Origin: Eledone cirrhosa
Taxonomy: Eukaryota
Assembly: GCA_964016885.1 (NCBI GenBank)
Contig: OZ024745.1
Coordinates: 101,246,001 to 101,310,000, forward strand
Reading direction: 5' to 3'
DNA length: 64,000 bases
The notes beneath the pieces are model-generated. The model did no database searches and had not been told where the DNA came from. It saw only the letters and a program-made list of their open reading frames with translations. Positions 2,919 to 60,894 of this stretch are shown here, in pieces (position 1 is the first letter of the stretch; every line of letters begins with the position of its first letter). The position numbers and the translations under genes are program-made.

Positions 2919-3876
2919 ATACTTTGGGAGGGTCATGTTGCCAATAAGAAACATACGCAGCACCAGTAGCTTTCACTTCAATTTATTATAATAAATTTAT
3001 AAATTTCCTGTAGGTTTGTTGGTTCCACAACCAGATGATTGTTTATATATTGTCAAAGTTCGTTCGTCACACATTCTGTGAGGGAGGTCTTGGGGGGGGG
3101 GGGGGGGGGTATATGTTGCTAATGGGTGTTTTTGTGGAGGTGTCTGGTCTTTCTGCTATCTTGATGTTGAGTTTGTGTTTATCTGGGGCCCTTCTGGGTT
3201 TGTGGGCTGGTTCACCTCTGGGGGTTGTGTCAATGAGCATTGCACTCTGGTGTCTATTGCTGTCGTTTCTCATCACCCGTACCAGATTCGCAATCAGTGT
3301 GTTGATTTTGGTGTGGTCCGAGGCGGCTGGGTTTCGGTGGATCAGATATTTGGAAGTCGTGGGTTTGGCATAATGGGAATGAAGGATTTGTTTTTTTTGT
3401 TAAATCACAGAGGCAGTGAACATAAATGAGCTCCAACCAAAATTGAGTGGAAGGCGTGGGTGGAGCAGCAACGTCGCAGCTTGCGGTTGAGGACAGGATG
3501 AAAACACACACGCACATAGAACAAACAACCAACCAGTAACATAAGCACACAACACACACACAAAAACAAGATGGCGTAGGACAGAACAAAGGAGAAGCAC
3601 AAAAACAAAGAAAAGAATCCCCAGTCACTGAAGAGGTCACAGAATGTGTGACGAAAGAACTTTGACAATATATAAACAATCATCTGGTTGTGGAACCAAC
3701 CAACCAACCGGAAATTTATAAATTCCTAAATTTATAAATTTATTATAATAAATTGAAGTGAAAGCATCTGGTGCGTGTGTTTCTTATTGGCAACATGACT
3801 CTCCCAAAGTATAACAATATCGGTTTCAACACCCGTTTTCAGATAAAGAATCTTGCTAAACAAATTCAGAAACGAA

Positions 3877-3880
<4 letters not shown>
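2914..3880 (-). mobile_element. Truncated Penelope-like element (non-Naiad lineage): RT-thumb fragment between inverted pLTR copies
   Basis: Minus strand ~3250-3375 encodes HYAKPTTSKYLIHRNPAASDHTKINTLIANLVRVMRN (PLE thumb-like). 2914-3081 is inverted at ~3636-3818. Same terminal motif at 18540-18600, 42715 and 55960. Confidence 0.7.
3624..3666 (+). ncRNA. Type I hammerhead ribozyme
   Basis: GTCA-CTGAAGA-(G)GTCACA GAATG TGTGAC-GAAA-GAAC-TT-TGAC. Stem II covaries with the 42906-42947 copy (GTTGCA/TGCAAC). Confidence 0.75.
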
Positions 3881-3907
<27 letters not shown>

Positions 3908-4011
3908 TCAATGAAAAAAGAGTTAGTTGATTTGTAATCAACTGATTCTTATATATAACAGATGCCAAGCACTCAACGGTATATATTTATCCGGAGTATT
4001 ATTATAGTAAT

Positions 4012-4194
4012 AATTGTTTCTACTTTTGGCACAAGGCGTAACAATTTATCCAGTGTATTACTGGTACTTTATTTTATCGACCCCATAAGGATGAAAGGCA
4101 AAGTTAACCTCGGCGGGATTTGAACTCAGAATAGCAAGGGCCATAACTCTATGCGTCAAAGCATGGCGTCCTACCCTCTACCGATACTGCCAAT
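4012..4194 (-). mobile_element. tRNA-derived SINE with Nin/Deu-like central domain (most abundant SINE here)
   Basis: Reverse strand GAGTTCAAATCCCGCCGAGGTTAACTTTGCCTTTCATCCTTATGGGGTCGATAAAATAAAGTACCAG. Other copies at ~630-720(+), 12621-12749(-), 19345-19550(-), 19676-19792(+), 28325-28442(-), 29362-29540(-), 48395-48575(+), 51357-51490(+), 55015-55428(-, two), 62300-62520(+). Confidence 0.85.
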
Positions 4195-4479
4195 AGTAAT
4201 AAACGAAAGATATATATTTTATATCATCTCTATACATTTCATTATATATATTTCGAAGATGTAAAGTTTTACGTATAACATAAAGCAAAACATGACCTCC
4301 TTAGACAAAATATTTAGAAAATGTAAAATATTTTCATAGTAGACATGACGAGCAGGCTATATCAGTGAACACCAAGCATATGCTTGGTAAGGAGGGTGGT
4401 ATTTGGACACCCTGCGGGATAAAAAAACAAAACAATCATACATTCAAACATACATACATGCATACATACGTAAAGCCCA

Positions 4480-7046: not shown

Positions 7047-8435
7047 ACATATCCAATTCGACATCAATAATTACTACTCCTCCATCATTTTACCACTTCT
7101 CCTTAGAGCTATCAATTTCGCTAAAACACTCACAGTGGTTAAGGATTTCGAAGTTGATGTCATCCTCAATGCCCGTAAGTCGGTGATTAATTTCGACGAC
7201 TCTATTTGGATTAAAAAACCTATCGTACCCCATTCGACGGGAGTATGGGCGCCAGCGATTCTGCGGAGGTTACTGATCTTATCGGCCTTTTCTTTCTTTT
7301 CTCTATCAAGGAAGAATTCCCCAATGTGGGCGGTGGTTTGTACCGTGATGATGGTCTTTTGTCCATGACAAAGTGCGGCCCACGTGCTTGCGACAGGTTC
7401 AGAAAAGAACTCACAGCCTTCTTTAAAGTCTTCAACCTCTCCATACAGGTTGATGCCAACCTCTCGGTCGTTAATTACCTCGACGTTACTCACAATTTGT
7501 CGAATGGCTTGCACTACCCGTATAGAAAGCCGAATGATACGCTTAATTACATAAGTAAGCATTCTAACCATCCTGTCAGCATAACCAAGAACCTGGTAAG
7601 AAACGTTTCTTTGAGGCTTTCCCGTCTATCTACTAACGAGAATATTTTCAACGACCATTCCACATATTACAATGAAGCTCTTGCTTGGAGTGAATTTGTC
7701 GATAAGGTATCATATACAGAGTACGAGAATAGACCTATGAAAAATAGATCCCGACGCATTATATGGTATAACCCACCATATAATATGGATGTGGCCACAC
7801 CATTAGCGATGATCTTTCTCTCCCTTGTTATGAAGCATTTTCTCCCTACACATAAACATAGTCACATTTTTAATAGAAATACTATTAAAATTTCTTACTC
7901 TACGACTCCTAACCTTGCACATAACATCACAGCTTCAAATTTAGCTAAACTACCTAGCCGTAGGAACACGTGCAACCCTGTAGTTAGTACTAACTGTAAT
8001 TGTAAGAATTGGGTTGACTGCTCCCTATCCGGGAAATGCCTCTCTAGTAACATTGTCTACAAATGTAAGGTTGAAATACCCACGTCCCGTAGGACCTACA
8101 TAGGGTTAACCGCCAATAGATTCAAGCAGCGTCTTTACATGCATACCCATTCTTTTCGTAACCCTTCAAGAAGGAATATGACGTCACTTTCAGCTTATAT
8201 CTGGAGTCTACAAGACAACCACACCCAATATAAGTTACACTGGGAGATCCTAGCTAGGGCTAGATCGTATAACGCAAATAAAAGACCATGTGACCTCTGT
8301 GCCGCTGGAGCCCTGGAAATACTCTACGCCAAAGACCACATCTTAAACAAAAAATCTGAGGCAATTACGGCTTGTAAACATAAATTGCACAAAACATTCC
8401 TGTATTACATCCCCACATTATACCCTAACGGATAG
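7047..8435 (+). pseudogene. Naiad-clade Penelope-like retroelement ORF (5'-truncated, one frameshift): RT + Zn linker + GIY-YIG
   Basis: [12 protein letters not shown] (RT motif A), GLYRDDGL, YRKPN..SNHP thumb, WYNPPY, CNCKNWVDCSLSGKC, IVYKC...TYIGLT...FKQRLYMH, CDLC. Confidence 0.92.
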
Positions 8436-10500: not shown

Positions 10501-10563
10501 ATTTTATTATATATATTTCAAGGGCAACCAAGACAACATTGGTACGCTTTCATCAGATAAAAT
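10501..10563 (-). ncRNA. Type I hammerhead ribozyme
   Basis: Minus: ATTTTAT-CTGATGA-AAGCGTACCAA...TTGGTTGCCCTT-GAAA-TATATA-TA-ATAAAAT. Confidence 0.8.
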
Positions 10564-14304: not shown

Positions 14305-14856
14305 TGGCTGCCAACTCGTTTTCGAGTACGGCCACTACTTTATATCCATGTAGGAGAACCCCTACCGATGCGCTGAATGAGTGTGACTTTTTAGTCCAAC
14401 CAGCGACTTGAAAACTCTGGTACAAACACTATACTTGTGACAATTATTGACACATAGTGCTGGGCCCATGGTACCATGTGACGACAAGTGCAGAGAGATC
14501 TCCAGATATAAAGCAATGCCTGTGCCGTGAAGCTTTTATAGTGAGCAAAAGCACTGCACAAAGCCAGTCCCATTCTCTTCACCAAGATGATATTTACCAA
14601 AAAGAAGAACAAGTTAACATCATTGGATACCATCAGGGTTGCAGGTGTTATATCAGAGTTTTCGTTCTCCTAGAATTCTGCCTTGACAAAGGCTAAGGAG
14701 TCATCTCTCCCGGTGATTTAGGATGGCCATTGACTCTTAAAAGCTCCTTTGCGCTTTGACAGGTTTTGGTTTTAGTCCTGCAGGATGTCCAAAGTCACCC
14801 TCCTCACCAAGAAACCTTGGTGGGGTTGCCAGTTTAGTCGCCAACGACCCGACCAT
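14300..14856 (-). mobile_element. Possible 5' UTR segment of an RTE-like LINE or related SINE
   Basis: Minus strand has TTAGCCTTTGTCAAGGCAGAATTCTAGGAGAACGAAAACTCTG, resembling RTE/SINE-associated motifs, plus several GC hairpins. No coding homology recognised. Confidence 0.3.
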
Positions 14857-14946
14857 GTATATATATACACACACAAACACACACACACGCGCACGCACGC
14901 GCACACACACACACACGCACGCACACGCACGCACACACACACACAC

Positions 14947-15003
<57 letters not shown>

Positions 15004-15004
15004 A

Positions 15005-16128
15005 ATACACTCAATTTAAACTCTGGTTTGATTAAACCGTTTCATAAATTGAATGAAAATCTCAAATACGTAAATGTTGGGTCTAACCACCCCATCTCTA
15101 TAATTAAATCTATCCCTAAAAATATTTCCCTTAGAATCTCGGGTCTATCTTCTAACATACAAGTATTTAAGGAACACGCCGAGTACTACGATAACGCCCT
15201 TAGTGAAGCAGGCTACCTCAACAAAATAGAGTACATAGATGGGAACAATCAAAACACCCAAAATAAATCCCACATAGGTAGATATAATAACACAACACCA
15301 AACCACACTTACTACCATAGTATGCACACCAGTAAACCAACAAACAAAACTAATAGAAAGCGATGCAAAGAGTACTTATGGTATAACCCCGAATACAATA
15401 GTTCCATTAGTACAAATTTACCAGTACTCTTCTTTAAAATAATTAAAAGACATTTTCCTACATCACACAAATACCACAAAATCCTAAACCCTACCACTAT
15501 AAGACTGTCATACTCTACAGCGTTAAACCTTGAACAACACATAAAAAAGATCAATACTAGAAGGTTAAACGAAAACACTAAAAACTTAAGTACAAAGAAC
15601 ACAAAAAAAACAGTAGACAATACACTACAGAACATAAATAAACCACACCTAAGTTCGTCCGCAATACTACTCCAGAGAAAACCCAACGTACACAACTGTA
15701 ACTGCACCTATCCTGACAACTGCCCCCTCGGCAATAACTGCCTGGAAAAAAATATTATTTATAAGTGTACCGTTAAATCCGGAGGCAACGAGTGGTATTA
15801 CGTGGGATCAACGGCAACATCGTTTAAATCTCGATTGTATAGGCATTCTTACTCAATAAAACACCAGAGCCAAAGAAATGTAACAACTTTAGCAGAAAAA
15901 GCTTGGACGCTCAGGGATAGCGATCAAAAGTTTACCCTAAAATGGGAGAAATTAGCTAAAACCCAAAGCTTTTCCAGGAGCCAAAATTTCTGCAAATTGT
16001 GTAATCTTGAGATTTATTACATAATCACACACAAGAAGAAACTGCTGAATAACAGAATTGAACGAACATTATTCTGCCGTCACAGAACTAAAACCCTTTT
16101 TTCCCACTACAAGCCGAATATTACATAA
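15005..16128 (+). CDS. Naiad PLE ORF, 5'-truncated but uninterrupted (RT thumb, Zn linker, GIY-YIG)
   Basis: KPFHKLNENLKYVNVGSNHP, WYNPEY, CNCTYPDNCPLGNNCL, IIYKC...YYVGST...FKSRLYRH, FCKLC. The N-terminus of the ORF call is microsatellite read-through. Confidence 0.9.
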
Positions 16129-17167: not shown

Positions 17168-17967
17168 ATTCCTTTCAACTAAACTGTATCCATTCAAATC
17201 TTTCTATATATAAATATATATATATATATATATTATATCTATTTTGGGAAACATATAAAGTAGGCTTTCAGCGCAGTATATGACAGAAACGTAAATACAC
17301 TCTGTGAAGTTTAATTACTGAACTAAAAATATAAAATATAGATTAAATATAAAAAATTTTTTTAAATTAAATTTGATCATTGGCACTGAATTCCATCTTA
17401 GAAATTTATACTGAATCGACACCTTATTCATTGTCATGTTCCATTCACATAAATCATACTTAGACATGTATCAGATTCTATTGCATCTAATGTTCTGTAA
17501 TATTATGATGGTAATTTGGAAAGATTAAAACAAAATTTTTAAAAGATAAGAGCAAACACAAACGCCATGTACATTTTATTATAAATAATTTTAGCTGAGA
17601 TTGCTTATGTTGTAAAGCAATTAATGGTTTAATATGTTCAATCATTAGAAGAAAAAGCATTTTATTACATGCGTTACATACACATTATTTCCTTGGTTTC
17701 AAATTAGGAACATTGGAAGCAATAAAATCTGATACAGCTTAGTATGATTTATGTGAATGTAACATTGGAATGAATACAGTTGAATTTAAGTCGATTTTAT
17801 CGAACCCCAGCACTTATCACCCTATTTCTGTCAAACCACTAACCTATGGGACATAAACGAACATGTTTGTGTGTGTGTATGTCCATGTCTGTACTTACGT
17901 AAATGTTTGTTTACGTCCAGTTATATATATATATATATTGTTTACGTCCAGTTATATATATATATAT

Positions 17968-18708
<741 letters not shown>

Positions 18709-21596: not shown

Positions 21597-21652
21597 ACTG
21601 CCTGATGAGGTCATAGCCATTCAATGGCTATCATCGAAATATATATAGCAGT
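21597..21652 (+). ncRNA. Type I hammerhead ribozyme
   Basis: ACTGC-CTGATGA-GGTCATAGCCATTCAATGGCTATCATC-GAAA-TATATA-TA-GCAGT. Stem II covaries with 24941 and 59055. Confidence 0.85.
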
Positions 21653-21693: not shown

Positions 21694-21724
<31 letters not shown>

Positions 21725-21846
21725 GAATGTATATATAGTATATTTGGCAATATACTGTACGCTTAATTAAAAACATGTTGAAGACCTTACGCTATTGTTT
21801 TAAAGTAATGACTATGTCACTTCTTTTTTCAACAAACAAAGGGAGA

Positions 21847-21894
21847 TAAGCTGACAGATCTCTGTTTCATACTGTTGGTATTCATCAGAGCTTA
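21847..21894 (-). ncRNA. Type I hammerhead ribozyme
   Basis: Minus: TAAGCT-CTGATGA-ATAC CAACA GTAT-GAAA-CAG AGAT CTG-TC-AGCTTA. Confidence 0.9.
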
Positions 21895-22124
21895 GCACTC
21901 GCCTTTGTCTGTTGAAAATTATAAATGTTGGATTCTTATAGAATTCCAGTAATAATCAGGAACTGATTATACAGAGCGGTTGCCAGTCCAGCAAAAATTC
22001 AATATTAGAATTGGTGCTCTGAAATAGCGATGTATATATGAATGTATATATAGTGTATTTGGCAATATACTGGAATTCTATAAGAATCCAACATTTATAA
22101 TTTTCAACAGACAAAGGCGAGTGC

Positions 22125-22172
22125 TAAGCTCTGATGAATACCAACAGTATGAAACAGAGAGCTGTCAGCTTA
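22125..22172 (+). ncRNA. Type I hammerhead ribozyme (canonical, GUC site at 22164-22166)
   Basis: TAAGCT-CTGATGA-ATAC CAACA GTAT-GAAA-CAG AGAG CTG-TC-AGCTTA. Stem I extends past an internal loop: TTTTCAACAGACAAAGG / CCTTTGTTTGTTGAAAA. Confidence 0.92.
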
Positions 22173-22339
22173 TCTCCCTTTGTTTGTTGAAAAAAGAAGT
22201 GACATAGTCACTACTTTAAAACAATAGCGTAAGGTCTTCAAAATGTTTTTAATTAAGCGTACAGTATATTGCCAAATATACTATATATACATTCATATAT
22301 ACATCGCTATCTCAGAGCACCAATTCTTATATATATATA

Positions 22340-23610
22340 TAAGGCCCATGGCCAAACTATATCTTACAACCCGAGGCGCCATGATAGAGATAGACCATCG
22401 GACCCCCCGACCCACGGTATCCGGGAGGGGGGAACCCTAACAGTGCAGGTAGAGTGGAAGCCACTAAACCCCATGAACCCGGCACCACCACATTAGAGAA
22501 AAGGACGCGTACGCCTAGTCATGGGAGGAAATCCAGTACGCGAGGTGGTCTCAGGAGTGATAATAACCACCCCGGGCCCGACGCCCCCAACCGCAAGACA
22601 CGAAGCGGGACTGACGGAGGATCATCCAATTGTAGAACTCTCATCATGGGCACACACACCACCCAACAGGTACGGGCCGAGAAGCTAGCAAAACACATAG
22701 CGCTCAAAGGGGAAACAACAATACGGGAACTAGTAGCAACCCAACAACTCCCCAACAGCCTACAGCACGCTCAACCCATCCACATAGGAATAGACTAAGA
22801 AAAATTACGTGGTGCAACCCACCCTACTAAGGAACCTAAAGACCAGCATGGCCCGGTCATTCTTTAGAGCACTAGATAAATGCTTCCCGGGGGACCACAG
22901 ATTCCACAAGATCTTCAACAGACACACTGTGAAGCTCTCGTATTCTACCACGCGCAACGTAGCCCAGCACATAGCTAGCAATAGGGGTAGACTTAAAAAC
23001 TACACACAACCAGCAGCTGGCAATATAAGCACCCAGCAGAGCCATGTAGGGGGAAGGAATGGTGGACCCGGTACCCACCCTGGGAACCCAAACAGACCCA
23101 GGGACCCCCCACCGGGCCCAGGGGCAGACCCCCCTATACTACGCAAAGGGAACCCCACAATAGGCACTCAGGGGTCGACCACCTCCTGCAACTGCAGAAC
23201 CCTTACATTATGTCCCCTTAGTAATGAATGCCTCATGAAGAACCTAGTATACGGATGTAGAGTAAAAAACCCCAACTCTGAGCACATTTACATAGGAGCC
23301 ACATCAACGAGCTTCAAAGACAGATGGTATAACCATCGCCATTCCTTTAATAGGGAGGGCAAAAGGAAAAGTACGGCTCTCCGAACTGATCTGGAAGCTC
23401 AAGCTGGACAGGACCCCGTACTCTCTGGCCTGGTCCCAAATCAGGAAAGTGCCACCTGATAGAGGGGGATCTGGATCTGCAACCTATGTCTCAGTGAGAC
23501 CCTCGAGATACTCAATGGTGGGAGCAGCCTAATCAAACTTAGGACCGACTTCTTTGGTACATGTAGTCACCTCAGGGCCGGAACCTTCCTCAAACTATAT
23601 GGATAACAAC
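22340..23610 (+). pseudogene. GC-rich Naiad PLE 3' ORF fragment with expanded linker, frameshifted
   Basis: FFRALDKCFPGDHRFHKIFNRHTVKLSYSTT, CNCRTLTLCPLSNECL, LVYGC...IYIGAT...FKDRWYNH, ICNLCLSE. Confidence 0.88.
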
Positions 23611-25402: not shown

Positions 25403-27309
<1,907 letters not shown>

Positions 27310-38820: not shown

Positions 38821-40876
38821 GAAAAAGTTGTTAAAAGAATGAGATGGAAAGCTTTGATTTTCGATGGGCACTTTATCACGGACTCTACAGAATACTTTGA
38901 TATCAAGTCTCATAAATACCCATAAAGAGTAAAAGATATGACCGCTTTTGAACTAGACTTAGTTAATTTAATCAACCAAATCAAATTCCGTAAGTACTCT
39001 AACTCTTTTTAATCTAAACTCTCTAACGATATTTCAAAATTCAAATCCTCTAAAAACATGTTCATTTTCTCTGATAAAACTAAAAACTTATACGAAGTTA
39101 ATAATGACTTACATAACCAACTCTTAACAGATAGTATCACCTCCAAATACCAAATAGCTAATATAAACACCTAAGGAAGCCAAAGAATTAGCTAGTTTTT
39201 TTTTAATAGACAATAGAACAGAAAAATTGCTAAACGTAATGCCTATATCACCCTCAAAGATCACAAATCTGATTTTAATAATCGTCCCAGTTGTAGATTA
39301 ATCAACCCTGCTAAGACTGAAATCGGCCTTGCTAGCAAAAAAATATTAAATAATATAAACAAACATATTAGAAGTAAGTCTGAATTACTCCAATGGATAA
39401 ATAGCTCTTCTGTAGTACATTGGTTTAAAAATATTAAAGATAAAAATAGTTCTAGATTCACCCAATTTGACATTGTAGACTTCTACCCGTCTATTACTCA
39501 CCCTCTTTTAAGGAAAGCATTAAATTTCGCTAAAAAGTTTATCAATATTTCTGATATTGAAGAGAATGTCATTTTGCATGCTAGAACCACTTTACTGTTT
39601 ACTAATAATGACACTTGGGTAAAAAAATCTAACCCAGAGAACCTATTCGATGTCTCAATGGGTTCTTTTGACAGTGCTGACGTGTGTGATTTAGTCGGCC
39701 TATTCCTCCTACACACACTTAAAGAGAAATTCTCTAACCATTCCTTTGGGCTTTATCGTGACGATGGTCTAATACTTTCCCATACCACTATAGGCCATAA
39801 CTTAGACAGATTCAGGAAAGACTTAATAAAATCCTTCGCTAGTTTTAATCTTAAAATTACCATTGACACTAACCTTTCTAATGTTAATTTTCTAGATATA
39901 AACCTAGATCTGCCTACTGCTTCTTATAAACCGTACCATAAACCAAATGAAAATTTAAAATATATAAATAAAGGCTCTTGCCATCCTCCTATAGTTTAAA
40001 AAAATCTTATCCCTAATATTAGCCGTAGGATCTCCACCCTCTCTTCCTCAGAAGCTATTTTCAATAAGGCATCCCCTACTATAATAAAGCCCTTCAAAAT
40101 AGCGTATTTAGTGAACCGATTAACTACATACCCAACAATACTAACTCCTTTAAACATAATAATAGGAAAAGAAAAATAATCTGGTTCACCCCACCCCTAC
40201 TCTTTAGCAGTTAAAACTAATGTAGGCAAAAAACTCCTAGAGCTCTTGGATAAACATTTCCCTAGAACACATAGATACTATAATATCTTCAATAGAAACT
40301 ATGTCAAAATCAGCTACTGCTGCGGTCCTTCTATTAAATCTTATATCCTCAATAAGAAAATACCCAGAGAACATCAAAATTGCTCCTGTAGAGTCAAAAG
40401 CGAATGCCCATTACAAGGTGAATGGCCATTACAAAAGTGAATGCCCATTACACCAAAGCCATTGTATATGAGGCTAAAGTGACAACCACCAGCAACAACC
40501 TACCAGCCACCAGCGAACGATATGTGGGTATGACACAAGACAAATTCAAAACGCGTTATTACTCACATGTCGCATCTTTCCGATATTCTGAAAAAAGATT
40601 TACAACAGCTCTGGTTAGCAGAATATGGGATTTGAAAACCAAGGTATCCAATATAAATTAGATTGGTCAATTTTGAACAAATCTAAAGAATATGCAAGCG
40701 GAACAAGATGCGCACTCTGCATAAGTGAAAAATATTGGATTTTACAGAACCTTAAATCACCAAAAACCTGCCTAAATGCAAAAACAGAAATTTTCACCAG
40801 TTGCCTACACATGAAATCACACTTGCTTTCCAGCTCATATAAACTTAACTCACTTTCAGACATGTATCCTCCATAA
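38821..40876 (+). pseudogene. Naiad ORF (RT + GIY-YIG) with several stops and frameshifts
   Basis: KRMRWKA N-terminal motif, SDKTKNLY, YITLKDHK...CRLINP, FTQFDIVDFYPSI, MGSFDSADVCDLVG, GLYRDDGL, CSCRVKSECPLQGE, IVYEA...YVGMT...FKTRYYSH, CALC. Confidence 0.93.
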
Positions 40877-40930
40877 ACTCTTGTTCTTCACTTTCCTTAA
40901 CTTACCTTATTTACAGACTTCTCTTTCAGA

Positions 40931-41162
40931 TTTATTTTTATTTTTATTTTTATTTTTATTTTTATTTTTATTTTTATTTTTATTTTTATTTTTATTTTTA
41001 TTTTTATTTTTATTTTTATTTTTATTTTTATTTTTATTTTTATTTTTATTTTTATTTTTATTTTTATTTTTATTTTTATTTTTATTTTTATTTTTATTTT
41101 TATTTTTATTTTTATTTTTATTTTTATTTTTATTTTTATTTTTATTTTTATTTTTATTTTTA
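40931..41162 (+). repeat. (TTTTTA)n hexanucleotide array in the Naiad 3' UTR
   Basis: About 38 perfect units. Confidence 0.95.
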
Positions 41163-41509
41163 CTTCACATCCACTAGTGACCCCCCTCCTGCTTTTTGAT
41201 TCACTTACTTTGTATCTTAACAATTTTACATATTTTATCCCCCCCTTTCTTTCACTACCTGATATCAAATGTCACTTGTGTTTTTAACTCCAGATATTTT
41301 CTGTTGTCCCTCAGCCGCTTTTATGTATGTTTACTTGCGTATATCTTGTACCCATTTATTCATACGGATGGTTTTTATATATGTATGCGTGTATGTGTGC
41401 ATATATGTGTATACGTGTTTGTATACGTATACGAATGCATCCGTATGTGTGCATGTATGTGTATATGTGTGTGTGTATGCGTGCTTTTACGTATATGTTT
41501 TTTACATAC

Positions 41510-41585
<76 letters not shown>

Positions 41586-42421
41586 CTGTACATATATATA
41601 TATGGTCGCGTGCGTGCGTGTGATTAGATGTACATGTATGTATATATATGTGTATCGTGTGTATGTATTCGTGTTTTTGTATGTATGTATGTACGCATGT
41701 ATGTGTATGTATCCTTTTGTGCATGTGGTTTTGTCTGTACATATATATATATTTATATATATATATGTGCGTACGAGTTTGTTCGCGTATCTGCATGTTT
41801 TCTACTTTTTATTTATTATTTTTTCTAGTGTTACTTTATAATTGATAACCTCTCCCCCTTACTTTCTCCTTGCCTTAATTTTTATTCTTATCTTATATAT
41901 TATTTCATCACTTTTTCATATTTTATATTTTTATATCTGTATCGACCTTCAGTCTGACTCTGCTTTGACTGATACACTCCCTTCCTTGTATATATCACAT
42001 ACATGTATGTGATTGCGCGTGTGTGTATGTTTATACGCGTGCGTCCTTTCATCCTTGTATGTGTATATATTTCAATTCTTAGTCCCTGAGTCTGTATGTA
42101 CGCTAACTCTATTATCTTACAATTCCTTTTTCAACATATATATATATACGTATTTGTGGTCACACATACACTAATATGTTTGCCCTCATGTATGTACTTA
42201 CGCACACATTTTTCACTATACACATGCATTTGTACATACACACATATGTACATTTGTAGGTGCATATACACACATTTATACACATCCCCTTACTATATTT
42301 CTTTATTTTATTTTTATATATCTCTTGTATTATTACTTTTATTTATTATTATAAAAAAATTTTTTCCCGTTAAACTTTTGCCTTTCTTGAGGAGATTTTT
42401 CAAATATTTCACTATGTTTTA

Positions 42422-42499
42422 AATTGCCTTGTCTGATGAACGAATACGGACGTTTCTTGTATTCGTCTTATTCGTGAAACTTCTGATAATGAGGTAATT
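42422..42499 (+). ncRNA. Type I hammerhead in the 3' pLTR
   Basis: AATTGCCTTGT-CTGATGA-ACGAATA...TATTCGT-GAAA-CT TCT GA-TA-ATGAGGTAATT (11-bp stem I; stem III mismatch). Confidence 0.78.
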
Positions 42500-42598
42500 A
42501 TATTGTATTGTTTATTATACATTAAATTTAGCTCTGTAACTTACATAGAACACTCTTCATTCCTATGACTTTTTCAATTTTCAACGGAAACTTCAATA

Positions 42599-42670
<72 letters not shown>

Positions 42671-43807: not shown

Positions 43808-43862
<55 letters not shown>

Positions 43863-44183
43863 CGAAGGAAATGTGGTAAGGAACCAGGTGGACCATAACG
43901 CACCAAAGTACTCAATACTTAGGGTAGTAGAGTGGGTAATAGGAACAAGTAAGACCCCGACGGCTGAGCTCAAGCCGTCGGGGTCTAACTTGTTCCTATA
44001 TATATATTTATATATATATATATATATATATACAATATATTAATAAATGGAAACTATATTTATAAATATAGTTTCCATTTATTAATATATTGAATATTTA
44101 CTCCAGTTATCTGTTGAGTGCTGCTTTATATCAGTTATAAACTTTTAAGCTTGTTGGAATCCCAACAATTTAAATATAACTTC

Positions 44184-44269
<86 letters not shown>

Positions 44270-44273
<4 letters not shown>

Positions 44274-45157
44274 CTGATTTTTGTGTTTCGCTTCGCTTTT
44301 CCTGCCCGCCGAAAATGCGATTCTCGCCGTATCTCCCCCTCCGCCTTTTGGGATTCTTTCTCACGTCGTGTAGACGCGTTCTTGAGACTAGTAAAATGAG
44401 GTATCCTCTTGATAAGTCGGCAGACCTCGCAAGGACTCTATATCTTTATGATATATTGTTTTTGTTTATGCCACGAAACTACGTAGTCGAGGAATTTAGG
44501 AGCAGTTTGGGTATGATACATTTTATTACTAATTATATCTAAATGTTTCTTCTCTCTTCATAATGTATTTTTAACTCTGATACTGGTTCAGTCTAGTCCA
44601 ACTGAATTGGTCTGTCCCAGTCATTCATTGAGCAACATCGGTGAAGTTGGCACTCTTAACTCACAGTTGGGTGCGGATGCATTCATGTATATATGTGTGT
44701 GTCCGCATGTATCTGTGTGTTTCTAAATATATTGTTAATAACTCCCTCTGGTCGAGCAATCTTTGAAGTGTGGGGACAGCTGGAAAGCTTCCATTACTCA
44801 TACTTCTCGCCTTCTTCACCACGTCTTATACGGCCTCGATATTAATACCCCCTCCGCCTCCGTGGTATTTTCTTCGGGGTTATAAGAGGCTTAGCTCTGT
44901 TTCTCGACCGTTATATCGCGTGACTATCTCCCCCTCCGCCTTTTGGGATTCTTTCTCACGTCGTGTAGACGCGTTCTTGAGACTAGTAAAATGAGGTATC
45001 CTCTTGATAAGTCGGCAGACCTCGCAAGGACTCTATATCTTTATGATATATTGTTTTTGTTTATGCCACGAAACTACGTAGTCGAGGAATTTAGGAGCAG
45101 TTTGGGTATGATACATTTTATTACTAATTATATCTAAATGTTTCTTCTCTCTTCATA

Positions 45158-45163
<6 letters not shown>
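44270..45163 (+). mobile_element. 595-nt non-coding HHR element, 1.4 tandem monomers (237-bp direct terminal repeats)
   Basis: 44331-44567 is repeated at 44926-45162. Each repeat contains an HHR. (TA)n flanks. Confidence 0.88.
44404..44493 (+). ncRNA. Type I hammerhead with U3-A8 core (copies at 44999-45088 +, 60032-60121 -, 60641-60730 +)
   Basis: TCCTC-TTGATAA-GT(C)GGCA...TGCCAC-GAAA-CTACGTAG-TC-GAGGA. Confidence 0.8.
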
Positions 45164-45214
<51 letters not shown>

Positions 45215-45717: not shown

Positions 45718-45919
45718 TAGGAAAATGTTTGACCCCGAGAGCAGAGCTCAAGCTGTCTCGACGGCTATTTCTGGACTATTTGAGTCCAGAAATAGCCGTC
45801 GAAACGGCTTGAGCTCTTCAGTCGGGGTCAAACATTTTCCTATTACCCACTCTACTACCCTAAGTATTGAGTACTCTGGTGCGTTATGGTCCATCTGGTT
45901 CCTTACCACACCTCCTACG

Positions 45920-45921
<2 letters not shown>
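45718..45921. mobile_element. Fold-back pLTR-like element (11388 family)
   Basis: ~60-bp arms TAGGAAAATGTTTGACCCCGA.../...TCGGGGTCAAACATTTTCCTA, in (TA)n. Confidence 0.75.
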
Positions 45922-50983: not shown

Positions 50984-51048
50984 ATTTTATTATACATATT
51001 TCAGAGGTACTGAGCTATCTTCAACAGTACGTCCTCATCAGATAAAAT
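50984..51048 (-). ncRNA. Type I hammerhead ribozyme
   Basis: Minus: ATTTTAT-CTGATGA-GGACGTACTG...CAGTACCTCT-GAAA-TATGTA-TA-ATAAAAT. Confidence 0.72.
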
Positions 51049-59787: not shown

Positions 59788-59790
<3 letters not shown>

Positions 59791-60799
59791 CAATATATTT
59801 AGAAACACACAGATACATGCGGACACACACATATATACATGAATGCATCCGCACCCAACTGTGAGTTAAGGGTGCCAACTTCACCGATGTTGCTCAATGA
59901 ATGACTGGGACAGACCAATTCAGTTGAACTAGACTGAACCAGTATCAGAGTTAAAAATACATTATGAAGAGAGAAGAAACATTTAGATATAATTAGTAAT
60001 AAAATGTATCATACCTAAACTGCTCCTAAATTCCTCGACTACGTAGTTTCGTGGCATAAACAAAAACAATATATCATAAAGATATAGAGTCCTTGCGAGG
60101 TCTGCCGACTTATCAAGAGGATACCTCATTTTACTAGTCTCAAGAACGCGTCTACACGACGTGAGAAAGAATCCCAAAAGGCGGAGGGGGAGATAGTCAC
60201 GCGATATAACGGTCGAGAAACAGAGCTAAGCCTCTTATAACCCCGAAGAAAATACCACGGAGGCGGAGGGGGCATTTATATCGAGGCCGTAGAAGAGGTG
60301 GTGAAGAAGGCGAGAAGTATGAGTAATGGAAGCTTTCCAGCTGTCCCCACACTTCAAAGATTGCTCGACCAGAGGGAGTTATTAACAATATATTTAGAAA
60401 CACACGGATACATGCAGACACACACATATATACATGAATGCATCCGCACCCAACTGTGAGTTAAGGGTGCCAACTTCACCGATGTTGCTCAATGAATGAC
60501 TGGGACAGACCAATTCAGTTGAACTAGACTGAACAGCTCTGTTTCTCGACCGTTATATCGCGTGACTATCTCCCCCTCCGCCTTTTGGGATTCTTTCTCA
60601 CGTCGTGTAGACGCGTTCTTGAGACTAGTAAAATGAGGTATCCTCTTGATAAGTCGGCAGACCTCACAAGGACTCTATATCTTTATGATATATTGTTTTT
60701 GTTTATGCCACGAAACTACGTAGTCGGTGAATTTAGGAGCAGTTTAGGTATGATACATTTTATTACTAATTATATCTAAATGTTTCTTCTCTCTTCATA

Positions 60800-60804
<5 letters not shown>
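59788..60804. mobile_element. 595-nt HHR element: 1.25 monomers on - strand plus an inverted partial monomer on + strand
   Basis: AACAATATATTTAGAAACACAC recurs at ~59789 and ~60383. The + copy starts at ~60535. Near-identical to 44331-45162. Confidence 0.88.

Positions 60805-60894
<90 letters not shown>

Follow-up and report, generated by a model that had tools for sequence, protein, structure and literature searches.

What kind of element lies at positions 44270-45163 of the 64,000-nt stretch of Eledone cirrhosa DNA analysed here (hereafter the window), and how is it multiplied in a microsatellite-rich genome of 3.0 Gb? An earlier note on this DNA had proposed a retrozyme, in which a 595-nt non-coding monomer is flanked by two identical hammerhead ribozymes. 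Our analysis leads to a more specific answer, which we consider probable. The element would be a non-autonomous retrozyme whose RNA is cut, ligated into a one-unit circle and copied by the enzyme of a Hydra-clade PLE, with two DNA ends priming at sites A and B.

The insertion lies on the plus strand. It consists of a 5'-truncated partial unit (44330-44568, unit positions 357-595) and one full 595-bp unit (44569-45163). Both parts end at site A, and the second runs into (TA)n. The target tract is visible in the left (44188-44269) and right (45164-45200) flanks. The earlier note described 237-bp direct repeats, 595 bp apart, on either side of a spacer. The offset of 595 is correct but the repeat measures 239 bp, with 0 mismatches between 44330-44568 and 44925-45163. 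There are no terminal repeats around a spacer; the two 'repeats' are mere overlap within an insertion of 1.4 units, so that the tandem non-LTR unit makes 1.4 turns at this locus. The start must also be moved from 44270, since 44270-44329 is outside the unit. These 60 bp, on the plus strand, come from another TA-anchored repeat family, close to its 3' end, with 95-97% identical matches elsewhere (929 first-look candidates, 40 scored). At the 11 loci examined that carry this repeat family there was no real match to the retrozyme unit. The piece could have been fused to the 5' end of the insertion by template switching, or the element may have inserted into an older copy.

As the earlier note stated, each repeat contains the same hammerhead motif; it is of type I. 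The first spans 44404-44493 and the second, identical and displaced by 595, spans 44999-45088; cuts are predicted after 44488 and 45083. In the first motif, stem I pairs TCCTC (44404-44408) with GAGGA (44489-44493). The core is TTGATAA (44409-44415), in which U3-A8 replaces C3-G8. Stem II is 59 nt long and closed by G-C, GAAA occupies 44475-44478, and the stem III region is the palindrome ACTACGTAGT (44478-44487), with the GTC ending at 44488. The predicted cut-to-cut monomer (44489-45083, plus strand) has 595 nt and a GC content of 41.8%. Its description as non-coding holds, as no stop-free frame in the doubled monomer exceeds 80 codons. The monomer is strongly folded compared with shuffled sequences (z = -6.0, 100 shuffles).

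Assignment of the hammerhead is based on manual folding and conservation, and self-cleavage is a prediction. No hammerhead appeared among the Rfam matches listed at E<=1 (best 150 of 153), nearly all of which were microsatellite-driven miRNA matches. The full hammerhead junction was not formed in minimum-energy folds, local or circular, and stem I was not formed in the predicted fold of the circle. Conservation supports the motif. Between two subfamilies, the 53 positions of core, stems and loop pairing include 1 fixed difference, compared with 91 among 592 positions of the unit (binomial P=0.0015). That sole difference, in stem I, keeps a G-U pair; in 37 hammerhead sequences the pair is UA (17), UG (15) or CG (5). 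It is the only stem I pair with such variation. Formal covariation in the same 37 sequences scored 0.091, equal to the shuffle control (0.091). The TTGATAA core was found in 262 of the 276 regions scored (13 were not parsed and 1 had another core). A search for a relative with the canonical CTGANGA core, this stem III and a spacer of 45-70 nt gave 0 matches.

The U3-A8 swap retains a Watson-Crick pair. In a study of C3-G8 exchange it reportedly keeps hammerhead activity. The C3-G8 pair of the hammerhead has itself been confirmed (PMC3884650), and the U3-A8 variant is reported in Schistosoma PLEs (PMC4209133). Cleavage by PLE-type hammerheads is described as weak (PMC4209133) and, of nine dimers tested in vitro in another study, one cleaved (10.64898/2026.07.22.740005). 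Upstream of stem I, GAGGT (44398-44402) is complementary to ACCTC (44424-44428) in the internal loop of stem II. This GAGGU/ACCUC pairing may be the loop-loop contact. It is conserved between the subfamilies, with no compensatory change in 37 sequences, and GAGG-TAT-CCTC at the same place could form an alternative, competing hairpin.

The earlier note also reported a nearly identical recurrence at 59788-60535. This is a second insertion, with two arms in opposite orientations. The long arm (59788-60534, minus strand) runs from unit position 18 past 595 and on to about 169, where it has its end at site B. It shows 98.4-99.3% identity, and its hammerhead is intact (core 60116, cut site 60037). 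The inverted arm (60535-60805, plus strand) covers positions 325-595 and ends at site A. In its hammerhead (core 60646, cut site 60725) there are three substitutions, two of which damage stem I (GGTGA for GAGGA). Hence, the suggestion of four nearly identical hammerheads applies to three, which are identical, but not to the fourth. Because its two hammerheads face opposite ways, this second locus would be unable to release a monomer.

The family is abundant. A 22-mer from the hammerhead core has 5,981 exact matches genome-wide (control 0), and a 14-mer of the hammerhead has 8,149 (control 7). The first 100 matches of the 22-mer and the 14-mer fall into about 55 and 52 loci, respectively, from which we estimate about 3,300-4,200 insertions. 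Core 22-mers are mostly spaced by 590-597 bp. The 595-nt unit belongs to one subfamily, and many copies have a 591-nt period. The best other copies are 98-99% identical, in agreement with the recent activity proposed before. Insertions sit in (TA)n microsatellites. Target-site duplications, which in metazoan non-LTR retrozymes exceed 4 bp when present, would be masked by the (TA)n at almost every locus. For closer study we used 70 position-sampled loci (those of the first 100 22-mer matches and 15 extra from 14-mer matches), 27 best-match loci and 28 loci of the older subfamily.

Could the unit be merely the truncated 3' end, or pseudo-LTR, of a longer coding PLE, as the earlier note itself had considered? 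The layout is PLE-like, PLE pseudo-LTRs carry such hammerheads, the U3-A8 variant included (PMC4209133), and retrozymes are described as derived from pLTRs (10.64898/2026.07.22.740005). Conversely, none of the 70 position-sampled loci was contiguous with PLE coding sequence, when searched with five local PLE proteins (flank of about 1 kb at the first loci); upstream of a unit there was always another such unit. Three of the 70 have a same-strand PLE fragment within 1.5 kb upstream, in each case beyond another arm or a microsatellite. We therefore give this explanation almost no weight, and the retrozyme architecture stands. An ancestral origin of the unit from a PLE end is likely.

In the recorded sequence runs, none that held the family was marked as RNA, and the kind of the four runs that do hold it is unrecorded. 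In one of these four, the family is a single contig of 621 nt that closes into a loop of 591 nt; tandem DNA gives the same. The 591-nt subfamily is also present, at about 97-98% identity, in runs X4, X5 and X6, which are labelled with two other organism codes and whose kinds are likewise unrecorded. Thus, the family is not confined to one organism label.

The 3' ends of the arms lie at two fixed sites. Among 109 arms in the 70 loci, 53 end at A, 47 at B and 9 elsewhere, and TA follows 96 of the 100 A and B ends. Site A is unit position 595 (window 45163). Site B is at about position 165, that is 165 nt further on; in the copy at 44330-45163 it falls at 44728-44737 (about 44733, plus strand) and is unused as an end. 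The 5' ends of arms are scattered over the unit. Both orientations are present at 33 of the 70 loci. The arms of head-to-head pairs follow a strict rule. Across the three sets, 58 of 68 pairs could be classified: 56 were A/B, 2 were A/A and 0 were B/B (A/B to A/A per set, 28/1, 13/1 and 15/0), where independent choice predicts about half A/B. One A/A pair, at L058, is an artefact of the identity cut-off, as the arm in fact extends, within a diverged copy, to about B; the other, at L012, ends in non-TA sequence. These counts, and those of variants below, exclude the duplicate loci L009, L011, L020, L134, L213 and L214, and the second copy in L112. PLE insertions have a 30-40-bp 'tail' at one end (PMC8557442, PMC3846280); the extension of 165 nt from A to B is the counterpart here.

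Junctions between A and B arms are mostly flush or overlap by a few bases, and arm lengths within pairs are uncorrelated (rho -0.13, n=56). Priming of a second strand where the first arm stops, as in L1-style twin priming, is ruled out since the arms overlap widely in unit coordinates. Alternatively, only one end may be primed, the other being a resolution site. A single cDNA would then fold back, or switch strand on a double-stranded circle, and the second site would be where it is cut or annealed, as has been proposed for the PLE 'tail'. Under this scheme, too, each inverted insertion should have an A end and a B end. Self-priming and endonuclease-mediated resolution have both been proposed (PMC3846280 and PMC8557442, respectively), and junctions are symmetric at a few loci (e.g. 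L091, L098 and L026), which the two-primer model does not predict. Against folding back on one cDNA, one arm is contained in the other for 14 of 28 pairs, compared with 18.1 (14-22) in shuffled pairs. Furthermore, single-arm copies end at A (23) and at B (19) about equally, so both A and B behave as start sites. A strand switch on a double-stranded circle may still apply. We regard resolution at one site as improbable and retain priming at both. Short inverted stubs, in few cases, add a detail: a B stub is present in 3 of the 23 A-ended copies and an A stub in 0 of the 19 B-ended copies. Two further calls of B stubs were microsatellite matches.

How many units did the template contain? Substitutions private to one locus are informative. 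In a set of 79 loci and 236 segments (segments below 93% identity were left out), 137 private substitutions fall at sites covered by at least two segments. Every segment carries the change in 30 cases, a single segment in 106 and some segments in 1; at sites with at least three segments the numbers are 11, 48 and 1. Thirteen of the 30 all-segment substitutions span both orientations; 30 label shuffles gave 0-1. At L094, with about 7.5 units, five private changes recur in every segment that covers them. Divergence is 0.64% between the opposite arms of a locus and 2.83% between loci. For subfamily markers, arms agree in 800 of 832 comparisons and disagree in 32. Because private substitutions are in all segments or one, and almost never in some, the data point to a one-unit template; the pattern is as expected if one monomer was copied repeatedly and single mutations arose later. 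Here 'private' means private among the 79 sampled loci of several thousand, and such variants may be rare source alleles. In that case a one-unit bottleneck would still be needed, though perhaps not in every insertion.

The predicted cut site does not stop copying. There are 132 crossings by arms and a single stop within 5 nt. There is no scar, position 516 being unchanged in 172 of 172. Errors at the predicted ligation junction were considered and rejected: position 518 has 6 variants in 172, 3 of them from L073, so there is no real enrichment. In the cut monomer, A and B are 80 nt and 245 nt from the 5' end; hence a linear monomer could give only short cDNA, while arms reach 2,932 nt. The template would then be a ligated circle or an uncut multimer, and the all-or-one sharing of variants favours the circle.

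A template in the form of an uncut linear multimer, read from tandem source copies of the same element and copied by the same helper, with the hammerhead slow or only occasionally active and most insertions independent of a circle, is unlikely in our view. Reading through the cut site without stopping fits uncut RNA equally well, the source arrays are themselves homogeneous, and the in vitro activity reported for such ribozymes is often low (10.64898/2026.07.22.740005, PMC4209133). Yet a linear multimer would be unable to spread a new variant to every unit, and the private changes at sites with at least three segments include 11 of 60 that are in all. Nor could it raise the number of units. 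Two hammerheads are in line at only 23 of the 70 loci, including layouts like that at 44330-45163, so arrays would shrink in each round on a linear template. Conservation of the ribozyme core between subfamilies also speaks against this rival.

The same variants bear on a further rival, in which units are multiplied or homogenised as DNA after insertion, in the manner of a satellite (by unequal crossover, gene conversion or circular DNA). Tandem units are indeed more alike within a locus than between loci and, at L112, a whole two-arm insertion has been duplicated locally, with a 2,554-bp spacing. However, the arrays are short and dispersed, with fixed ends in (TA)n and scattered starts, and variants are shared all-or-one across inverted arms where conversion should give partial sharing. 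We consider such DNA-level processes very improbable as the source of the arrays.

We thus return to the one-unit circle with two primers, for which the following sequence of steps is proposed. A copy with two hammerheads in line, such as 44330-45163, would be transcribed by read-through. The transcript is predicted to cleave itself at GUC, probably aided by dimers formed through the palindromic stem III. As in known retrozymes, a host ligase would close the 595-nt circle, and the absence of stem I in the predicted circle fold would protect the circle from being cut again. The PLE enzyme would cut the (TA)n tract, and both DNA ends would prime on the RNA at the AU-rich sites A and B. Rolling-circle reverse transcription could then extend each arm to up to about five units. 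Subsequently, the two cDNAs would be joined back to back, often via short microhomology. Loss of one arm would leave a single-arm copy such as 44330-45163.

Which PLE might provide the enzyme? With a local RT query we obtained 38,441 first-look PLE candidates, of which 147 were scored; several have open frames of 719 aa. The 719-aa ORF carries RWK, DKT, CxCx5C, CxxC and CxH motifs, by which we assign the element to the Hydra clade (PMC8557442). The candidate helper (L168/L188-L192) has the C-terminal endonuclease, RWK, DKT, the CxCx5C linker, a canonical hammerhead and insertion in (TA)n. Its natural unit, at L191, is 3,685 bp; the canonical hammerhead would cut 33 nt before the A end, and the B end is about 77 nt after A. 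All nine classifiable PLE pairs are A/B (15 were examined, in a set picked by a pattern favouring B ends). Just past A, the PLE and the retrozyme have a motif in common, of 13 nt in the older subfamily and 11 nt in the copy at 44330-45163 (44575-44585, plus strand). In 20,000 shuffles the 13-nt match arose 0 times and the 11-nt match 4 times, and none of 3,625 other windows contained it. Exact matches, sought among the 47 commonest contexts listed from 1.19 Mb, were confined to the retrozyme and this PLE. CTCCC also lies 8-9 nt past B in both. When the unit was compared with 30 PLE loci and 10 PLE 3' regions, only microsatellite-like matches were found besides the motif past A. The comparison covers one PLE family of many, and the 719-aa element is a candidate for the retrozyme's helper, with the shared motif as a candidate cis signal.

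Two observations touch on this pairing. At L058 (1155-1200), a young retrozyme arm is immediately preceded on its 5' side by 45 bp from the interior of this Hydra PLE, beside a diverged older retrozyme copy; a template switch between parasite and helper RNA is a possible origin for this junction. Within the window, 39217-42604 (plus strand) is a broken Hydra-clade PLE related to the helper. It has an RT-like frame at 39217-39999, coding sequence to about 40870, a canonical hammerhead at about 42430-42490, an A end at about 42523 and a B end at about 42604, before (TA)n.

A broader proposal can be put forward tentatively, as one that we think somewhat less likely to be right than wrong. Hydra-clade PLE enzymes in general may prime both cut DNA ends at two fixed sites of one RNA circle. 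The 'tail' would then be the distance between priming sites, and the retrozyme and the intact 719-aa element would be a matched parasite-helper pair with a common signal of 11-13 nt past A. A search of openly accessible main texts found none that describes two-site priming on a circle. That PLE enzymes copy retrozyme circles by a rolling-circle route has been proposed before (PMC7229834, 10.64898/2026.07.22.740005, PMC4209133), and an in vitro PLE system has been named as a next task (PMC8557442). The DNA of the family described here bears footprints, of a one-unit template and of two anchoring sites, that can be counted. With a particular intact element as candidate helper and a short motif common to both, the general hypothesis becomes a concrete assay. 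If the matched pair is real, substrate, enzyme and cis motif can be named for rebuilding the reaction.

The window contains other sequences of related kinds. PLE-like coding fragments are at 7215-8435, 14776-16128 and 22794-23459 (plus strand) and at 17942-18547 (minus strand), with a weak GIY-YIG match in 22797-23456 (E=0.0016). In a 237-bp inverted repeat (21715-21951 and 22068-22304), the two arms carry canonical type I hammerhead motifs, at 21853-21888 (minus) and 22131-22166 (plus); the repeat is probably another TA-targeting non-coding family. Hammerhead motifs with an AT-only palindromic stem III occur in other short repeats at 10508-10556 (minus), 26040-26089 (plus), 50991-51041 (minus) and 21602-21647 (plus). 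Just upstream of the insertion, 44034-44187 is a short back-to-back repeat between TA tracts; by eye, one arm is about 100 nt longer at its end, resembling an A/B pair of another family. At a distance, the insertion is flanked by oppositely oriented copies (43861-44000 and 45721-45921) of another TA-inserted repeat, which has an internal hairpin.

Comparison with known systems places the family. Plant LTR retrozymes (PMC4918200) similarly have two hammerheads flanking a non-coding RNA, on the 600-nt scale, that is able to circularise. They are described as having type III hammerheads, true LTRs, a PBS, a PPT and 4-bp target duplications. Conversely, the hammerhead here is type I, and the repeat length varies with truncation from locus to locus; type III hammerheads in LTRs of fixed length are not found.

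PLE-associated hammerheads (Cervera and de la Pena 2014, PMC4209133) are closer in structure. They are reported to share the U3-A8 covariation (about 1,300 matches in Schistosoma mansoni), a long stem II with a bulge, a short stem I and a palindromic stem III suited to dimers. Those motifs are described as mostly single, heterogeneous and in PLE ends, whereas here the motif is fixed in a young non-coding tandem family and, unlike those motifs as described, has a possible GAGGU/ACCUC loop pairing, conserved without covariation.

Hydra-clade PLEs (Craig et al. 2021, PMC8557442) resemble the family in their (TA)n targets, a hammerhead near the 3' end, partial tandems, an inverted 5'-truncated arm, and a 'tail' at one end. 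The Hydra-clade PLE of this genome also has the same A/B rule and the shared motif past A. The retrozyme unit differs in having no ORF, and thus no frame with RT and GIY-YIG endonuclease between pseudo-LTRs as in an autonomous PLE. Its tail is 165 nt, compared with 77 nt in the local family and the 30-40 bp given in PMC8557442, and its hammerhead is unrelated in sequence to that of the local Hydra family.

The closest match is with metazoan non-LTR retrozymes (PMC7229834, 10.64898/2026.07.22.740005). As in those elements, the units are tandem and non-coding, each with one type I hammerhead, there is no LTR layout, GC content is below 50%, and thousands of dispersed copies share a genome with PLEs. 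The 595-nt unit is within the 51-972-bp range given by Li, Clavereau and Pollet 2026 (10.64898/2026.07.22.740005), and longer than the retrozyme RNAs of 170-400 nt that Cervera and de la Pena 2020 (PMC7229834) report testing. Distinct from the descriptions in these sources are the U3-A8 core, the 59-nt stem II and the strict (TA)n targeting. The two fixed 3' ends and back-to-back arms differ too; the text of PMC7229834 is without the words inverted, microsatellite and junction. The hammerhead here is predicted to be blocked in the circle, which PMC7229834 calls unusual for animal retrozymes. With its tandem type I units, absence of coding sequence and fixed LTRs, and many dispersed copies alongside PLEs, the family is likely, on these sequence characters, to be a further metazoan non-LTR retrozyme, a class of element already known.
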